Sequence record: NC_029091.1
Reading direction: 5' to 3' (one strand)
Source: Escherichia phage APCEc01
DNA length: 64,000 nt
Part shown: in pieces, positions 14,541 to 24,158 of the stretch
How the letters are laid out: the number at the start of each line of letters is the position of its first letter
Position numbering within the stretch: position 1 is the stretch's first letter
Made by a program: the position numbers and the translations under genes
The notes under the pieces: model-generated
Seen by the model: the letters and a program-made list of their open reading frames with translations, nothing else
Databases searched by the model: none
What the model was told of the DNA's origin: nothing

Positions 14541-14614
14541 GGCCCTGTAGCTCAATGGTTAGCAGCAGTCCCCTCATAAGGGAAAGGTTACCAGTTCGAA
14601 TCTGGTCTGGGTCA
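14541..14614 (+). tRNA. tRNA with CAT anticodon (Met, or Ile if C34 is modified)
   Basis: Cloverleaf: acceptor GGCCCTG/CTGGGTC, T-arm ACCAG-TTCGAAT-CTGGT, anticodon loop CTCATAA; no encoded CCA. Confidence 0.75.
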
Positions 14615-14620
14615 TATATT

Positions 14621-14697
<77 letters not shown>

Positions 14698-17104: not shown

Positions 17105-17698
17105 ATGAACACACTGAAGAAACTTGTTGAATTCATCCGCACTAAACTTGGTACTGCTATGGCTAAAAATCTGACTGTCGAAGAACAGTATAACGCAGCT
17201 GCAGATAAGTTGATTACCCAAATCAAAGAACTAAAAACGGCTTCTGTTAAATCTATTAATGAAGAAAAACGTATTCGCGAACTTGTTAATGAAAAGAACA
17301 AACAAGCCGCTTCTAAGGAACGTGAAATTCGTAAGCTCTTGGCTGAAGGACAAGATGTTACCATGCATGCTAAGCTTGGTCTTCTGTATCGTCGAACTGC
17401 CGAACAACTTAATACAAAGGCTGACGGGTATGCCGCTATGCGAATTGAAATTGCTCGTAAGGTGGTTGAACTTGATGATGCTCGTCAGAATCTGGCAATC
17501 AAACTCGAATACATTCGTGAAACTCGAGCAGCCAATGCCCTTGGTATCTCTACGGCTGATGATGTAATTGAAATCGCTGCACTGACTAAGGTTGATATCG
17601 AAGACACTCTGACTCGTGTTGAAACGTTCAATGGCACTCCAGCCGGTGTCGAAACCACTTCTGCTGATGTACAAGAATATATTAACTCTTTGAAATAA
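17105..17698 (+). CDS. hypothetical coiled-coil protein
   Basis: 197-aa product, Lys/Glu/Ala-rich heptad-like sequence. Confidence 0.55.
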
Positions 17699-17705
17699 AA
17701 TAATA

Positions 17706-17728
17706 CGGAGGACTCCGGTCCTCCTTTT
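17706..17728 (+). terminator. intrinsic terminator
   Basis: GGAGGAC-TCCG-GTCCTCC followed by TTTT. Confidence 0.65.
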
Positions 17729-17747: not shown

Positions 17748-18350
17748 ATGCGAAACCAAAATAATGATATTGACTCAATGTTCGAAGAGTTCCGAGATAA
17801 GGTAAATCCACCTACGTCTTTAGTTGATTCATTACGATATGTTGCAACCGGACGTAAATGGTACTGGTCGTCTTCTTATGAGACTACTGAGAAAACGGCT
17901 AGCCATAGCAGAAAATCTTTATTAGCCCCAGGTATTATGATTCATGATATCGGAGCTATTGCTAAACTAGTTGCAGACCATGATATTAGATTCACCGATT
18001 TCGTTGCTCCTACATGGTCTGTTTGTTGTTTAAACACTGAATGGGAATATATCAGCGAACGCTCTAAAGATTATTATGGTTTTAGAGATAAGCTTCTGAG
18101 GTCTAACATGTTTTATATTGATACAGAAGTTCTGGTCAATAATAAAAAATACTACTTCACTTTAATCGTCGATTCTGAAACTATGTATGAAGGCGGGCCT
18201 TTGCTTAAGAGAGTTGATGCTTTAAGTGCTATTGATGCGCTTTATGAAACTATGGTTGTTAGTCCTAATTTCACTAACAATTTAATCCTTGAGCAATTTA
18301 TTATGGAATGTAGAGAATATGTCAAAGCCAACCCTGTACATGCCAATTAA
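17748..18350 (+). CDS. hypothetical protein; C-terminus has FIMECR motif
   Basis: 200-aa product from ATG after GGAG; ends ...EQFIMECREYVKANPVHAN. Confidence 0.5.
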   Translation: MRNQNNDIDSMFEEFRDKVNPPTSLVDSLRYVATGRKWYWSSSYETTEKTASHSRKSLLAPGIMIHDIGAIAKLVADHDIRFTDFVAPTWSVCCLNTEWEYISERSKDYYGFRDKLLRSNMFYIDTEVLVNNKKYYFTLIVDSETMYEGGPLLKRVDALSAIDALYETMVVSPNFTNNLILEQFIMECREYVKANPVHAN

Positions 18351-18714
18351 GCCCTGGGCATACGAATACAAGCGTAAATTAATCCCAAATGAAGTACTAT
18401 TTGGCCCTATTTTAGCTTTAGCATTTTTAATCTTTATGATTATAGGAGCTGTTTTAGATTCCAATAAAGTTATATCGTCTGATGCAGCATTTTCATTAAT
18501 GTTCGTCGCACCACTTATTGTACCGTTTTTATTAATGCCTATTAATTGGGTAGGATATTGGCACCAAGGCCGTCATCACAGAGCTCGAGTAAGAGAATGG
18601 AAAGTTCAGTGCGCAAAAGCCCAAGCTCAGTATGATGAAGCTGTTAAAAAGTATGAATATGAAGAAGCTATGGAATTCGTTAAGGAAATAAGATGCAAAA
18701 GCCTCAACTCTTAA
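18319..18714 (+). CDS. hypothetical membrane protein
   Basis: 131-aa product with two hydrophobic segments; overlaps the upstream gene end. Confidence 0.45.
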   Translation: MSKPTLYMPIKPWAYEYKRKLIPNEVLFGPILALAFLIFMIIGAVLDSNKVISSDAAFSLMFVAPLIVPFLLMPINWVGYWHQGRHHRARVREWKVQCAKAQAQYDEAVKKYEYEEAMEFVKEIRCKSLNS

Positions 18715-19052
18715 CCGTATGGCCTTCTCTTGGTGAGAACATTCTAATTTTTATTATGAGTATTGGCATGGGATTTGCCTTTGGATTAGTTGGATTTCTT
18801 ATTGACGGCGTTGTGTTAGGATTTATAGGGAACACTGGTGGATTCACAGACCAATGGCAGGACTTACGGTATACCCAAGCCTTTGCATCCATCGCATCAT
18901 TTTGTACTGTAGTCTATTTTTACTACGATTTTATAAACCACAACAAGAAAAATAAAAAGGTTTACGCTTCTCAAATGATTAGTTATAATGAACTCCTAGC
19001 TAGACGTGAAAATGAAACAATCGAAAACTTTATTAAGGAATGTAGAAAATGA
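18693..19052 (+). CDS. hypothetical membrane protein; C-terminal NFIKECR motif
   Basis: 119 aa, hydrophobic N-terminal half, ends ...ETIENFIKECRK. Confidence 0.5.
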   Translation: MQKPQLLTVWPSLGENILIFIMSIGMGFAFGLVGFLIDGVVLGFIGNTGGFTDQWQDLRYTQAFASIASFCTVVYFYYDFINHNKKNKKVYASQMISYNELLARRENETIENFIKECRK

Positions 19053-19354
19053 GTAAGATTATTGAAATTAAAGTACCAGAGTTTAATGATGCCAAATCCG
19101 CTTCAGATGCAATTTATAAACTTCTGAATCAAGCTGAACGTATCGAAGAAGAAGCAACAAAGATCGCAGACCAATATGCCGTATCATTTTCTGTAGGTGA
19201 TTATGGTAGCGGTCGTACTTATTATCCTAAGGGTGAAATCGTATCCCAGTGGATGAAAGATGAAATTGAAAATAATGGCGGCGATGTTAAGCGTGAAGGT
19301 AATGGATACGTTATTACTGAAGGTGCTTGGGTTTCGTCTTCTGCGTTGTGCTAA
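19049..19354 (+). CDS. small protein, tandem paralog A (C-terminal GAWVSSSALC)
   Basis: 101 aa; shares DYGSGRTYYP and GWVxSS..C motifs with the next two ORFs. Confidence 0.5.
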   Translation: MSKIIEIKVPEFNDAKSASDAIYKLLNQAERIEEEATKIADQYAVSFSVGDYGSGRTYYPKGEIVSQWMKDEIENNGGDVKREGNGYVITEGAWVSSSALC

Positions 19355-19363
19355 GGAATCATT

Positions 19364-19636
19364 ATGTCTAAAGAACAAACCGAACTGGCTGAAGCTGTAG
19401 CAAAAATCTATGCAGCTATTGAGGCTGCCAAAGAAATTGCTGATAAACAAAACACAACATTCAACTTGTACCCAGCTTATGGTATGGGTGGAACCTATCA
19501 TTCACCCGGACATCTTAAAGCCGATCTTGAACGTTGTACAAAAAACGGCTATGCTGAATGGGCTGACGTTTACCAATACGACTACAACCTGAGCCTCGAA
19601 ACTGGTGGTTGGGTCGCATCTTCTCACACTTGCTAA
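19364..19636 (+). CDS. small protein, tandem paralog B (C-terminal GGWVASSHTC)
   Basis: 90 aa; gene junction TGCTAAGGAAnCAnTATGTCT identical to paralog A. Confidence 0.5.
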   Translation: MSKEQTELAEAVAKIYAAIEAAKEIADKQNTTFNLYPAYGMGGTYHSPGHLKADLERCTKNGYAEWADVYQYDYNLSLETGGWVASSHTC

Positions 19637-19645
19637 GGAAACAAT

Positions 19646-19843
19646 ATGTCTCGTGAATTAGATTGTGCTGTACGTACGGCAGTAGCTGCTCTGGAAAACC
19701 TGTTCCAAATTGCAACAGAAGAACGCGAAGAAGTTACATTATGGATTGAAGATAACGCAGGTCTGAATCTCCAGGACGCGATCTCATTATCCCACAATAG
19801 TATCACTGTTCAAGGCTGGGTATCATCTAGTTATTCTTGCTAA
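19646..19843 (+). CDS. small protein, tandem paralog C (C-terminal QGWVSSSYSC)
   Basis: 65 aa, same C-terminal motif. Confidence 0.45.
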   Translation: MSRELDCAVRTAVAALENLFQIATEEREEVTLWIEDNAGLNLQDAISLSHNSITVQGWVSSSYSC

Positions 19844-19847
19844 AACA

Positions 19848-19890
19848 GTTTACAACAAGATAGGGCTATGTTATAGTAGTCCTATCAAAA
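19848..19890 (+). promoter_or_regulatory. early promoter with stem-loop, repeat family A
   Basis: GTTTACA at 19848-19854, TATAGT at 19872-19877, palindrome ATAGGGCTAT...ATAGTAGTCCTAT. Confidence 0.6.
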
Positions 19891-19905
19891 CAAATGGAGT
19901 CCACA

Positions 19906-20145
19906 ATGATTTATTACGAAAGTATCGGAACCAAAGTGGTTAGTAAAACCATTACTCGTGAAAAGTTTGCAAAGATATTCGATATGCGTTATAAAAAATC
20001 TGAACACAAAGGCATCCGATTCGAAGATGCGCACTGTACAATTTGCCCTTATAATGAAGACATAAACGGTACAATCGTTCCATTGGTAGAGGCTTCACAT
20101 GATGACCTCTGGGATGAATATAATATCGCATGTCGTGAAATTTAA
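19906..20145 (+). CDS. hypothetical protein
   Basis: 79-aa product from ATG after GGAG. Confidence 0.5.
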   Translation: MIYYESIGTKVVSKTITREKFAKIFDMRYKKSEHKGIRFEDAHCTICPYNEDINGTIVPLVEASHDDLWDEYNIACREI

Positions 20146-20173
20146 GTTAATGAATTAATCCGAGGAAAATATT

Positions 20174-21130
20174 ATGATGTTAGTTATTGGTTCTCGTGCA
20201 CTTCACTATCACGGTCTTATTGATTCTAGCGCTATTAAAAATAGTGATTGGGACTTTATTGCGGACCAAGGTTCTTGGAATGCATTCAAAAATCAAATGA
20301 TGGGTGTATATGTTCACCAAGATAACCCTGATGTCCAAGTTTTCAAATGCTTCCATAATGGACGCGAAACTCATTTTGAAGCATATATTGTTCCGGCAAT
20401 CACTAATGTCCGTGAATTAGTCGGTGAACTCACTCCTGAAGATTTCACGTCTTCTTATGACCTTTTAAAATACGCCAAGAAAAATTTGACTAAAGACCGT
20501 TTGAACGGGTTTTACTGGGCAACTCCTGAGATATGTCTTGCAATTAAGATGTCTCATCGTTTCAAGAAAAATAATCCATTCTTTTTAAAGACTATGAACC
20601 ATATTCAGTATCTTCGTGGTAAAGGTGTTACACTGAACGATGAACTTACTGAAATTATGCTGAAACGCCAGAAAGAAACCTTGAATTATGCTCACCCAGT
20701 TCTTGACACTTCTAAAAGTGCGTTCTTTAAAGATGACATCTATACATATGACCATGATACTATTCATGAAGCCATTGCACTAACAGACCGTCCAGCGTAT
20801 ACATTTTATATGAAAGATGGTTCTGAAGTCATGACCTCACGCGAGAAGTTCGAATCATTACCAGAAATGGTCAAATTGGCCGGCGTATACGAAGAATCAT
20901 GTGTACTAGCGTTAGAACGTTCTCAGATTCCTAATAACTTTGAAATCCATCCACGTGATAGTTTTATGATGGCCCTTGAAAAGGTCTGTACATCAATCAC
21001 ATCAGGATGGTTCCGTGAGTTCGCTTGGGAAAATTATAGCAAAGTAGTAAGTATGTACCAAAGCTTAGGACACGACGATTACGTCAAGCGTTTCAAACAA
21101 AACTTTCATATGGTAAAACCTTTCAAATAA
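20174..21130 (+). CDS. hypothetical protein, possible minimal nucleotidyltransferase fold
   Basis: 318-aa ORF; N-terminal IGSRALHYHGL...DWDFI resembles a G-S...D-x-D motif (weak). Confidence 0.5.
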   Translation: MMLVIGSRALHYHGLIDSSAIKNSDWDFIADQGSWNAFKNQMMGVYVHQDNPDVQVFKCFHNGRETHFEAYIVPAITNVRELVGELTPEDFTSSYDLLKYAKKNLTKDRLNGFYWATPEICLAIKMSHRFKKNNPFFLKTMNHIQYLRGKGVTLNDELTEIMLKRQKETLNYAHPVLDTSKSAFFKDDIYTYDHDTIHEAIALTDRPAYTFYMKDGSEVMTSREKFESLPEMVKLAGVYEESCVLALERSQIPNNFEIHPRDSFMMALEKVCTSITSGWFREFAWENYSKVVSMYQSLGHDDYVKRFKQNFHMVKPFK

Positions 21131-21142
21131 TTTCACAAAACA

Positions 21143-21185
21143 GTTTACAAGGTCTGTAGTTGTTGATACTATAGACCTATCAAAA
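21143..21185 (+). promoter_or_regulatory. early promoter with stem-loop
   Basis: GTTTACA at 21143-21149, TACTAT at 21167-21172, inverted repeat AGGTCT/AGACCT; upstream TTTCACAAAACAGTTTACA is identical to the 12670 promoter. Confidence 0.55.
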
Positions 21186-21210
21186 CAAATGAGTGAATGG
21201 AGATATAAAA

Positions 21211-21411
21211 ATGACTACTTTGAATAAACGTTTCGGTAAAGCTAAACCTGGTTGTGCAGCAGAACGTCGTTATGTTTTCGCTCAGTTAGAAGATGTAGAG
21301 TATCAGATTAATCAAGTTCACATTACTGGCATCGAGCCTATGTGTGGCCTTGAAGCTCTTCGTGAAGTTCGTGATGGGTATCGTCGTGACATCGAAGAAA
21401 TGTCAAAATAA
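21211..21411 (+). CDS. hypothetical protein
   Basis: 66-aa product from ATG after GGAG. Confidence 0.5.
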   Translation: MTTLNKRFGKAKPGCAAERRYVFAQLEDVEYQINQVHITGIEPMCGLEALREVRDGYRRDIEEMSK

Positions 21412-21455
21412 GTGTACAAACTGATAGGACTATGTTATAGTAGTCCTATTAAAAC
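21412..21455 (+). promoter_or_regulatory. early promoter with stem-loop, repeat family A
   Basis: GTGTACA -35, TATAGT at 21436-21441, palindrome ATAGGACTAT...ATAGTAGTCCTAT. Confidence 0.6.
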
Positions 21456-21469
21456 ATGAGGAGAATATT

Positions 21470-21775
21470 ATGAAATTAGGCGAAACCAACCGAATTGGTC
21501 TTTTAACAATATTTGTATCACTTTTTTACGCAGCTCTTTCTGTTGCAGTATTACAAAAGGCTTACAGTATGGATGGTGTTCCTGGTTTTGTATTCTTATC
21601 GCCGTTTTTGCTATTCGTTGGAGCATTGTTATTATATGCCACGACTAGTTTCGACCATAACGTCTGGGTCAATTATAAATGTAAATTGTCTGAAGAAGAA
21701 CACGCAGAAGCTCGTAAAAAAGCTATTGAATCTACCAATCTAGAAAATTTCATTAAAGAATGTCGAGGAAAATAA
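21470..21775 (+). CDS. hypothetical membrane protein; C-terminal NFIKECR motif
   Basis: 101 aa, two hydrophobic segments, ends ...NLENFIKECRGK. Confidence 0.5.
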   Translation: MKLGETNRIGLLTIFVSLFYAALSVAVLQKAYSMDGVPGFVFLSPFLLFVGALLLYATTSFDHNVWVNYKCKLSEEEHAEARKKAIESTNLENFIKECRGK

Positions 21776-21776
21776 T

Positions 21777-22463
21777 ATGAATAGTTCTAAAGTGTTTAAT
21801 AGTCAAGCTCGTGCAGTAGGTGGTTTTGCTCATGCGATTAAAAATGACCAGATTAAAAACGAGCCTATGTTCTTTAATTGCGATTTGAATTTTGCTTTTG
21901 ATAACGGCGGTCCAATTACTCGTAGCTTTATCCAAAATCTCCCTGACGATTGGAAAGACTCGGATGTAGTATTTGATTCACGAGTCCATATGCTGATGCC
22001 TGGTTGGTATCCTGCTATTCCTGGTTATCACCATGATGACGTACCACGCCCGGATATTCCGGTTGGTCAACATTTTATTACTGCAGGACAACCTGACTAT
22101 GACAATCCTCGCTATTTGTCTGAACATATTCTTGGTCTTGTTAACGCTGATGTGTGTCCTACTCATTTTGCAACAGGAACTGCAGAGTTCAGTCAGATTC
22201 CTGATGGCGAACTTATCTATCGCCAGTGGCACAAAGAAGTCCTCGAAAAAATCGAAAAAGGCGAACTAGAGAAATGGGAAGCTCCAGATCGTACTCTTCT
22301 TCAGTTTGATTGGCAAACATGGCACACTGGTTCTCGTGCAATTAGTAACGGATGGCGTTGGTTCGGACGTGTATCTCGTAATACAGACCGAGTTAAAAAG
22401 ATTACCAATGAAATTCGTGTCAATGCCCAAGTTTATCTGGAATTCCCTATGGAAGGATGGTAA
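21777..22463 (+). CDS. hypothetical protein
   Basis: 228-aa ORF, His/Asp-rich (PGYHHDDVP); no confident family assignment. Confidence 0.55.
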   Translation: MNSSKVFNSQARAVGGFAHAIKNDQIKNEPMFFNCDLNFAFDNGGPITRSFIQNLPDDWKDSDVVFDSRVHMLMPGWYPAIPGYHHDDVPRPDIPVGQHFITAGQPDYDNPRYLSEHILGLVNADVCPTHFATGTAEFSQIPDGELIYRQWHKEVLEKIEKGELEKWEAPDRTLLQFDWQTWHTGSRAISNGWRWFGRVSRNTDRVKKITNEIRVNAQVYLEFPMEGW

Positions 22464-22954
22464 TGATTAACAAAACATATTGGTCTAATATAGACGATGG
22501 CAACGAAGGTATTTCATACTATTCAGTAGATTGGACAGGATGTCCATCCTACTTAGTGAAACATATTTGCCAAGAATTTAAAATCGACCAGCCAGCAGGT
22601 ATTATCGTGAACAGATACATTAATGGATATCAACCTATCGATGAAGTAATACGAACAACTCAAGCTGAGCTTGAAAAGTTTTTCAATAAGTGCCAATGGA
22701 TAACAGGATGGATTATATTTGTACCGTCGGTATGGTTTTTTAGTACTAAGGTGAGTTCTTTCGGTTTTGTTGATATTATTGCTATCTTATTAGCATCTGC
22801 TATCGTAAGTATAATTGGCGGTATAATTGGTGGAGGTACTGTAGGCATCATTATTAATCTTGTTAAAAGTAGTTTACAAGAACGTAAAGACAAGATAAAG
22901 GCCAAGAATAATGAAGTTGAACGTTTTATTACCGAATGCAGGAATTTGAGATGA
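22457..22954 (+). CDS. hypothetical membrane protein; C-terminal RFITECR motif
   Basis: 165 aa, hydrophobic central region with GGxIGG repeats, ends ...NEVERFITECRNLR. Confidence 0.5.
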   Translation: MVMINKTYWSNIDDGNEGISYYSVDWTGCPSYLVKHICQEFKIDQPAGIIVNRYINGYQPIDEVIRTTQAELEKFFNKCQWITGWIIFVPSVWFFSTKVSSFGFVDIIAILLASAIVSIIGGIIGGGTVGIIINLVKSSLQERKDKIKAKNNEVERFITECRNLR

Positions 22955-23669: not shown

Positions 23670-24158
23670 ATGAATATATTTGAAATGCTTCGTAATGACG
23701 AAGGTCTTAGACTGACTTTATACAAAGACACTGAAGGCTTTTGGACGATTGGCATAGGCCATTTAGTAACAAAGAACCCGTCTTTAGCCGTAGCTAAAGC
23801 TGAACTTGACAGAATGATCGGTCGTAAATGCAACGGTACAATTACCCTTGATGAGGCTGAAAAGCTATTTAATGAAGACGTTGATAAAGCCGTCCGCGGA
23901 ATCTTGGGTAATGCTAAACTTAAACCGGTATATGATTCTTTAGACGCAGTTCGTCGGTGTGCATTGGTCAATATGGTCTTCCAAATGGGTGTAGCAGGAG
24001 TCGCCGGTTTTACTAATTCTCTTCGTATGCTTCAACAGAAACGTTGGGATGAAGCGGCAGTAAATCTAGCCCAATCTAAATGGTATCGTCAGACACCTAA
24101 TCGCGCGAAACGCGTAATCTCAACATTTAAAACAGGAACTTGGAAAGCGTATATATGA
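23670..24158 (+). CDS. e: endolysin, T4 lysozyme family
   Basis: 162-aa product [32 protein letters not shown]..., close to T4 lysozyme. Confidence 0.95.

Follow-up and report, generated by a model that had tools for sequence, protein, structure and literature searches.

A conserved C-terminal FIxxCR motif on diverse proteins of the e.6–nudE region of T4-type phages shares its codons with the ribosome-binding site of the next gene

A short peptide motif was found at the C-terminal end of four proteins encoded in a 64,000-nucleotide stretch of the Escherichia phage APCEc01 genome (NC_029091.1; this whole stretch is referred to below as the window), all of which belong to the gene cluster between e.6 and nudE. 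The motif has the general form h-x-x-F-[IV]-x-x-C-[RK], in which h is hydrophobic, and is located 0–15 residues before the stop; its true peptide core is F-[IV]-x-x-C-[RK], hereafter FIxxCR. It is restricted to this cluster in two complete genomes of related phages, is carried by heterogeneous proteins, is conserved at the level of the protein rather than of the DNA, and, where the following gene starts close by, overlaps the Shine–Dalgarno (SD) sequence of that gene. With moderate confidence, we favor the interpretation that it is a C-terminal short linear motif that would form a docking helix for one common partner.

Over its full length, the region shows 97–99% identity to phages of the genus Mosigvirus (RB69-like, T4-type), for example JK42 and ATK47, and the open reading frames (ORFs) in it were named after the annotations of ATK47 and T4. 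In the six-frame translation of the window, FI.ECR occurs exactly four times, always in frame with an ORF on the plus strand. The four carriers and the e.4 homolog, which holds a degenerate copy, are as follows.

17748..18350, plus strand: e.5 homolog, 200 amino acids (aa), soluble (phrog_2607); motif 11 codons before the stop.
18319..18714, plus strand: e.4 homolog, 131 aa, with two hydrophobic segments and a K/R-rich tail (phrog_2604).
18693..19052, plus strand: e.3 homolog, a 119-aa membrane protein (phrog_2330).
21470..21775, plus strand: 101-aa two-helix membrane protein of the RB69ORF133c family (phrog_9798), a family found only in Mosigvirus.
22463..22954, plus strand: e.2 homolog, 163 aa from the ATG at 22463 (phrog_2203).

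The copies of the motif are located as follows, with distances to the next ATG in nucleotides (nt).

18297..18314, plus strand: copy 1, FIMECR (TTTATTATGGAATGTAGA), in e.5, 11 codons before the stop at 18350; the e.4 ATG at 18319 follows after 4 nt.
18676..18693, plus strand: degenerate copy, FVKEIR (Cys replaced by Ile; EFVKEIRCK), in the e.4 homolog.
19029..19046, plus strand: copy 2, FIKECR (TTTATTAAGGAATGTAGA), in e.3, 1 codon before the stop at 19052; the next ATG, at 19049, follows after 2 nt.
21749..21766, plus strand: copy 3, FIKECR (TTCATTAAAGAATGTCGA), in the 101-aa ORF, 2 codons before the stop at 21775; the next ATG, at 21777, follows after 10 nt.
22925..22942, plus strand: copy 4, FITECR (TTTATTACCGAATGCAGG), in e.2, 3 codons before the stop at 22954; the ATG of the RB69ORF130c homolog, at 22951, follows after 8 nt.

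According to the first-pass annotation of this DNA, the motif is found a few codons short of the stop, and its DNA directly precedes the start codon of the next gene. The latter applies to all four copies, at distances of 4, 2, 10 and 8 nt; the former describes three of them (1, 2 and 3 codons), whereas 11 codons separate the e.5 copy from its stop. Three of the four carriers had also been predicted to be membrane proteins, in agreement with the two hydrophobic segments present in each of them and absent from e.5. In the e.2 homolog, for which an alternative ATG exists at 22457, an N-terminal soluble domain is followed by the hydrophobic segments and then by a basic tail. The frequency of the motif is far above that expected by chance: the DNA pattern TTYATTANNGARTGYMG matched four times in the window compared with 0.00 expected from 100 shuffles, and F[IV]xxC[RK] was observed four times within the C-terminal 27 residues of ORFs with 60 aa or more, compared with an expectation of 0.053 (Poisson P = 3e-7).

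The motif was then sought in whole genomes of related phages, where it proved to be confined to this cluster and to recur across genera. In the complete genome of the Tequatrovirus ES21 (166.8 kb), F[IV]xxC[RK] is present in real ORFs only in e.2, e.3 and e.5, with a variant in e.4; in the complete genome of the Mosigvirus TH58 (170.7 kb), it is present only in the same four genes as in the window (e.5, e.3, e.2 and RB69ORF133c) and in e.4. The remaining matches in both genomes lie in short non-coding frames. A wider survey was anchored on the conserved e.6 gene (1100 phage records), and the downstream loci were read in Gaprivervirus, Dhakavirus, Jiaodavirus, Ceceduovirus, Moonvirus, Karamvirus, Pseudotevenvirus, Muldoonvirus, Biquartavirus and Marfavirus, giving a total sample of 14 phages from 12 genera. 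The first ten loci contained 39 motif instances, all 39 of which are C-terminal, and further instances were found in RB43, EC-F2, avDM5 and Marfa. Throughout the 14 phages, the carrier genes are always located between e.6 and nudE, with up to six carriers per genome (the maximum, in Karamvirus), and the gene directly after e.6 encodes a soluble protein of 170–315 aa with the motif near its C-terminus in 14 of 14 phages; in Muldoonvirus, the motif of this protein is a variant in which Cys is replaced by Ala. Between 1 and more than 30 residues separate the Cys from the C-terminus, and in RB43 and EC-F2 the motif is situated 30 residues from the stop. A profile of the tail searched against 5.8 billion proteins returned four matches, all of them T4-like e-region fragments, a search that passed only 83 word-index candidates and therefore says little on occurrence elsewhere.

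Two peculiarities of individual carriers were noted during this survey. The protein in the e.5 position of the Gaprivervirus TH54 (locus L011, 5126–5680) contains two tandem motif-like copies (...EYTLECRKRKRKLNRFIAECREY...), and its Dhakavirus counterpart has EYTSEIRK at the first site. In the T4 reference sequence (NC_000866, 67491–67960), e.2 contains two compensating 1-nt indels 78 nt apart relative to ES21, such that the annotated T4 e.2 (102 aa) ends early and the last approximately 40 codons (...NNFITECRKLK), which are back in the original frame, are unannotated. The real T4 e.2 product is probably about 161 aa long, and the indels reflect an old sequencing error or else a double mutation of the laboratory strain.

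The codons used in the motif indicate the level at which it is conserved. Across the 39 instances, Phe is encoded by TTT (26) or TTC (11) and Cys by TGT (16) or TGC (15), while Ile uses all three and Arg all six of its codons. The usage for F, I and C in the motif is close to that of the whole genome; among the motif Arg codons, AGG accounts for 21%, compared with 4–5% genome-wide. Within the window, all differences at the five conserved residues are synonymous (TTT/TTC, TGT/TGC and AGA/CGA/AGG), and 12 of 18 nucleotides are invariant among the four copies, a number that falls to far fewer across genera. When orthologs of e.2, e.3 or e.4 from different genera are aligned, few columns of the C-terminal half are invariant, and the motif residues are among them. 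With synonymous codons in use at F, I/V, C and R, it is the amino acids that are conserved, and selection is on the protein, not on the DNA.

The genes of this region are packed end to end, so that a C-terminal motif falls on the initiation region of the next gene. The next ATG lies -1 to 65 nt from the motif, and usually 1–25 nt. When 30 non-redundant instances were binned by this distance, the position of the SD sequence was found to follow a simple rule.

Distance of 5 nt or less, 14 cases: GGA or GAGG across codons 3–4 in 12; Arg codon AGG or CGA in 1; Glu or Asp at position 4 in 12.
Distance of 6–10 nt, 7 cases: GGA or GAGG across codons 3–4 in 0; Arg codon AGG or CGA in 7; Glu or Asp at position 4 in 4.
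Distance above 10 nt, 9 cases: GGA or GAGG across codons 3–4 in 0; Arg codon AGG or CGA in 1; Glu or Asp at position 4 in 1.

The SD sequence of the next gene thus overlaps the codons of the motif at a place set by the spacing (Fisher P = 1e-6 for the SD in codons 3–4 at 5 nt or less, and 2e-5 for the Arg codon AGG or CGA at 6–10 nt). In the class with the shortest spacing, the SD lies over codons 3–4 (of the AAG-GAA type), which encode K, E or M followed by E; in the class of 6–10 nt, the Arg codon and a following G or A form AGGA or GAGG. The window contains both solutions. In the degenerate copy of e.4, the AAGGAA of codons 3–4 serves e.3 as SD, and the e.3 ATG at 18693 overlaps the Arg codon of this copy; AAGGA in copy 2 is the SD of the ATG at 19049; in copy 3, the SD GAGGA is built from the CGA Arg codon and the following codon, and in copy 4, the AGG Arg codon and AAT give the SD AGGA. 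The Glu of FIxECR and the similarity of the window copies to AAGGAATG are therefore largely due to the SD being written into the motif. This is a case of dual coding, in which a peptide motif and the ribosome-binding site of the next gene occupy the same codons and the solution shifts predictably with the spacing.

As a side observation on one of these junctions, the e.5/e.4 overlap measures 32 nt in the window (18319–18350) and in T4, and 44 nt in Gaprivervirus, which seems unusually long, as most junctions in this packed region overlap by 1–8 nt. Between the e.5 motif and the e.4 ATG, the usual spacing of 4 nt is maintained, and e.5 extends 11 codons beyond its motif.

The carriers are heterogeneous. 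After removal of the tails, they form at least 16 phmmer clusters, and profile–profile comparison between carrier families (hhalign) gave probabilities of 14% or less. The four carriers of the window and e.4 are distributed over five different PHROGs, none of which has a function assigned to it ("unknown function" or the generic "membrane protein"). The copies of Pfam and NCBIfam that were searched with the carriers gave no significant match; the precomputed accessions of a protein database list PF26876 for e.5 and PF26896 for the e.2 C-terminus, models that are absent from the Pfam copy searched. About two-thirds of the carriers are membrane proteins, mostly with two hydrophobic segments, and the remainder are soluble. 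In the membrane carriers, a K/R-rich linker of 13–45 residues connects the last hydrophobic segment to the motif. The e.5 family is narrow, being found only in Tequatrovirus and Mosigvirus in the two large protein libraries searched, and its AlphaFold2 (AF2) model is beta-rich with a terminal helix over the motif (residues 179–194, LILEQFIMECREYVKA; predicted local distance difference test score [pLDDT] 56–68). The first-pass annotation had called the four ORFs unrelated, a term that is slightly overstated, as there is a weak match between the 101-aa ORF and the e.2 family in the C-terminal half of the latter.

The same annotation had left open whether the repeat was a shared protein tag or a conserved DNA junction. 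The synonymous codon changes at the retained residues, together with carrier families that lack detectable homology once the tail is removed, argue for the tag. That so short a putative helix is strictly conserved on otherwise unrelated tails, predicted to be cytoplasmic, is most readily explained if all of them bind a single common surface, and the following mechanism is considered the most likely. The tail, which terminates the early proteins encoded between e.6 and nudE, namely e.5, e.4 (in degenerate form), e.3, e.2 and lineage-specific additions such as RB69ORF133c, would fold into a helix whose hydrophobic positions i, i+3, i+4 and i+7 (-3, 0, +1 and +4 from the Phe) form one face, with the basic residue flanking it. 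In the membrane carriers, the positive-inside rule and the K/R-rich linker would place the motif in the cytoplasm, where the soluble carriers also reside, and the heterogeneous proteins would thus dock through their tails onto one partner at the inner face of the membrane.

Several points weigh against this interpretation. The e.3 and e.4 families are weakly linked (hhalign P = 0.002), the 101-aa ORF matches the C-terminal half of the e.2 family (phrog_2203) with E = 1.2e-4, and one architecture, two helices and a basic tail, is common to the membrane carriers. Because of these weak links and this common architecture, part of the sharing could reflect old paralogy rather than independent acquisition, and the sequences suggest such paralogy for some of the membrane carriers. 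Certain families have I, S, V, M or A in place of the Cys, which makes a specific thiol chemistry unlikely. The AF2 model of e.5 is of low confidence (pLDDT 59, from a shallow alignment), so that the exposure of the terminal helix is tentative.

In the main alternative, the motif would be a relic of common ancestry and a self-contained tail, the two-helix carriers being old tandem paralogs and the tail, for example, an in-plane membrane-binding or homo-oligomerization helix rather than a tag for a shared partner. The shared architecture of two hydrophobic segments, basic linker and motif, the two weak links and the tandem arrangement of the genes are all in its favor. We nevertheless judge it unlikely, as the motif also ends soluble proteins of other predicted architecture, including the beta-rich e.5, families of 95–131 aa and the 170–315-aa proteins encoded after e.6; moreover, membrane-binding amphipathic helices usually vary far more than the F-[IV]-x-x-C-[RK] core that is retained across the genera sampled.

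A second alternative is that the nascent peptide arrests the ribosome near the stop and thereby controls translation of the next gene. The position of the motif, 0–15 codons before the stop and usually 1–25 nt before the next ATG, is reminiscent of SecM, MifM and VemP, which control secA, yidC2 and secDF2, respectively, and in which a conserved C-terminal peptide of a membrane or secreted protein is likewise encoded directly upstream of the initiation region of the next gene. Most carriers are membrane proteins, and the 13–45 residues that separate the last hydrophobic segment from the motif are comparable to the spacing in force-sensing arrest peptides. Unlike those systems, however, the five junction RNAs that were folded showed no significant secondary structure (z-scores -1.1 to +1.8) that might sequester the SD, and soluble carriers bear the same motif. 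The variation of the distance to the next ATG (-1 to 65 nt) and the placement of the motif 30 residues from the stop in RB43 and EC-F2 are further difficulties, and we know of no resemblance between the motif and known arrest motifs. This explanation is therefore considered very unlikely.

The DNA-level reading, that of nucleotide micro-homology at gene boundaries serving recombinational exchange of modules, can be given hardly any weight. It draws on the location of the motif in a hyperplastic region with promoter-stem-loop (PeSL) cassettes (PMC2839356, PMC4122927), which are also repeated conserved sequences at gene boundaries of a variable early region, and on the difference in gene content between e.3 and e.2, where this phage has about 3.4 kb of extra genes compared with T4 and where the left edge of the difference is the end of e.3. 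PeSL cassettes are, however, intergenic and conserved at the nucleotide level (PMC2839356, PMC4122927), separate from the FIxxCR motif, which is coding, conserved at the amino-acid level and always in the frame of the upstream ORF. The codons are degenerate, including all six for Arg, only 12 of 18 nucleotides are invariant even within the window, and the DNA identity is no more than the amino acids and the overlapping SD demand. Only the left edge of the Mosigvirus insertion between e.3 and e.2 bears the motif; the gene before e.2, at its right edge, ends in ...EFPMEGW (a single comparison). Equally remote, and largely refuted, is the reading of the motif as a by-product of the downstream translation-initiation region (an SD and an A/U-rich enhancer): the motif codons do contain the SD at short distances to the ATG, and the window copies are alike at the DNA level (AAGGAATGTAGA), but the SD codons shift with the spacing and the SD lies outside the motif beyond 10 nt, yet F, I/V, C and R/K are retained with synonymous variation, so that the overlap explains positions 3–4 and the choice of Arg codon and not the motif itself.

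Two functional candidates were tried and rejected. Cys-based chemistry in the form of a metal site, lipidation or a disulfide does not accord with the Cys substitutions, the predicted cytoplasmic location of the tails and the variable distance from the Cys to the end of the protein. A site for the gp21 protease (I-x-E) does not accord with the Glu, which is not conserved outside four genera and is accounted for by the SD overlap.

If the tail is a docking helix, the product of e.6 is a candidate for the common partner, since e.6 always precedes the cluster; a host protein is equally possible. The features upstream of e.5 are as follows.

17105..17698, plus strand: e.6 homolog, 197 aa; upstream neighbor of the cluster, with a predicted long helical hairpin.
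17707..17724, plus strand: GC hairpin resembling a terminator, with a T run after it, located between e.6 and e.5; a terminator is annotated in ATK47 too.

The AF2 model of e.6 (pLDDT 76, above 90 in the hairpin) comprises a long helical hairpin, preceded by an N-terminal helix and followed by two short C-terminal helices. A Foldseek search of the PDB with this model returned Vipp1/IM30 as all of its top eight matches, followed by PspA and the archaeal ESCRT-III protein CdvB2, and in BFVD the best non-orthologs were a Snf7-family protein and a PspA/IM30-family protein. At the sequence level, profile matches to Vipp1 are in register but non-significant, the Pfam and NCBIfam models of PspA, PspB, PspC and LiaI gave no match for e.6, and the fold cannot be assigned uniquely. 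Small membrane anchors, LiaI for instance, recruit proteins of the PspA family (PMC9239133). The arrangement in the phages may be analogous to LiaI–LiaH and PspB/PspC–PspA, in which small inner-membrane proteins with cytoplasmic C-terminal regions stand beside a long-hairpin protein of the PspA/Vipp1/ESCRT-III type (PMC9239133): here, e.6, with its Vipp1-like model, is followed by two-helix membrane proteins with predicted cytoplasmic tails. Unlike the LiaI, PspB and PspC anchors, none of the carriers matches the Pfam or NCBIfam models of those families, and soluble proteins bear the same tail. By extension, the cluster from e.6 to e.2 might constitute a membrane-remodeling or membrane-protection module of the ESCRT-III/PspA type, in which e.6 polymerizes and the FIxxCR tail is the adaptor by which changeable two-helix proteins and the e.5-type protein recruit or regulate e.6 at the cytoplasmic membrane in early infection. 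We propose this only tentatively and consider it rather doubtful as a whole; if the partner were indeed the Vipp1/PspA-like e.6, these phages would encode a membrane-maintenance system with interchangeable anchors.

Short terminal peptides on otherwise unrelated phage proteins have precedents. In T4, gp43, gp33, gp55 and RNase H bind the clamp gp45 by a C-terminal peptide of the SLDFLF type. The FIxxCR tail resembles these clamp-binding peptides in being a short conserved sequence at the C-terminal end of proteins with little else in common and, as proposed here, in docking them onto one hub; it differs from them in sequence, in its carriers, which are membrane proteins and small soluble early proteins without an assigned function, and in that its hub is putative. 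The capsid-targeting sequence (CTS) of the T4 internal proteins (N-terminal MKTYQEFIAE) is likewise a short terminal peptide on hypervariable, otherwise unrelated proteins of the same neighborhood. CTS and tail also show a local likeness, as between MKTYKEFITEAR (locus L014) and ESEEFITECR (locus L017), which is no more than a lead, and the window itself holds an internal-protein-like ORF at 24140. The CTS, however, is N-terminal with the consensus MKTY-x-EF[IL]-x-E, is found on late virion proteins and is cut by the prohead protease after the Glu, whereas the FIxxCR tail is C-terminal in 39 of 39 instances, belongs to an apparent early transcription unit and requires Cys-Arg/Lys, its Glu not being conserved outside four genera and lacking in most.

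A shared terminal docking peptide is thus a well-known kind of element, and the FIxxCR motif itself is undescribed in the literature accessible to us: searches on the gene names e.2–e.6 gave nothing useful, and a description of the motif was not found in the accessible libraries or papers, an earlier mention being possible. In T4, the most thoroughly studied of the large phages, about half of the genes are still without a function, e.2–e.6 among them. The presence of one tag on three to six proteins per genome, retained in at least 12 genera, is taken to mean that these proteins act through one common contact, and a single peptide contact could accordingly assign a whole block of orphan genes to a pathway.

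The surroundings of the cluster contain further features. Genes for tRNA-Met (CAT) and tRNA-Arg (TCT) are located upstream of it (window 14541–14697), as in related phages; downstream of the e.2 homolog come, in order, the RB69ORF130c homolog, nudE and the gene e for lysozyme. The window contains three PeSL-like cassettes, at approximately 19849–19890, 21144–21185 and 21413–21455, each before a Mosigvirus-specific block of ORFs between e.3 and e.2; the 101-aa ORF (21470..21775) lies directly downstream of one such cassette. Each comprises a T4-type early promoter (TTTACA/TGTACA, 17 nt, TATAGT/TACTAT) with the -10 region within a short stem-loop, and such cassettes before ORF blocks have been described for hyperplastic regions (PMC2839356, PMC4122927). 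A second C-terminal motif was noted directly downstream of e.3, where three tandem ORFs (19049–19354, 19364–19636 and 19646–19843; 101, 90 and 65 aa) share the terminal sequence G-x-W-V-[S/A]-S-S-x-x-C-stop, in which the Cys is the last residue. The genome of the Tequatrovirus ES21 lacks this family, which is represented by two to five tandem copies, including variants such as WYPSSC and WFNSSMSC, in the loci of Gaprivervirus, Dhakavirus, Moonvirus, Karamvirus, Marfavirus and Muldoonvirus.

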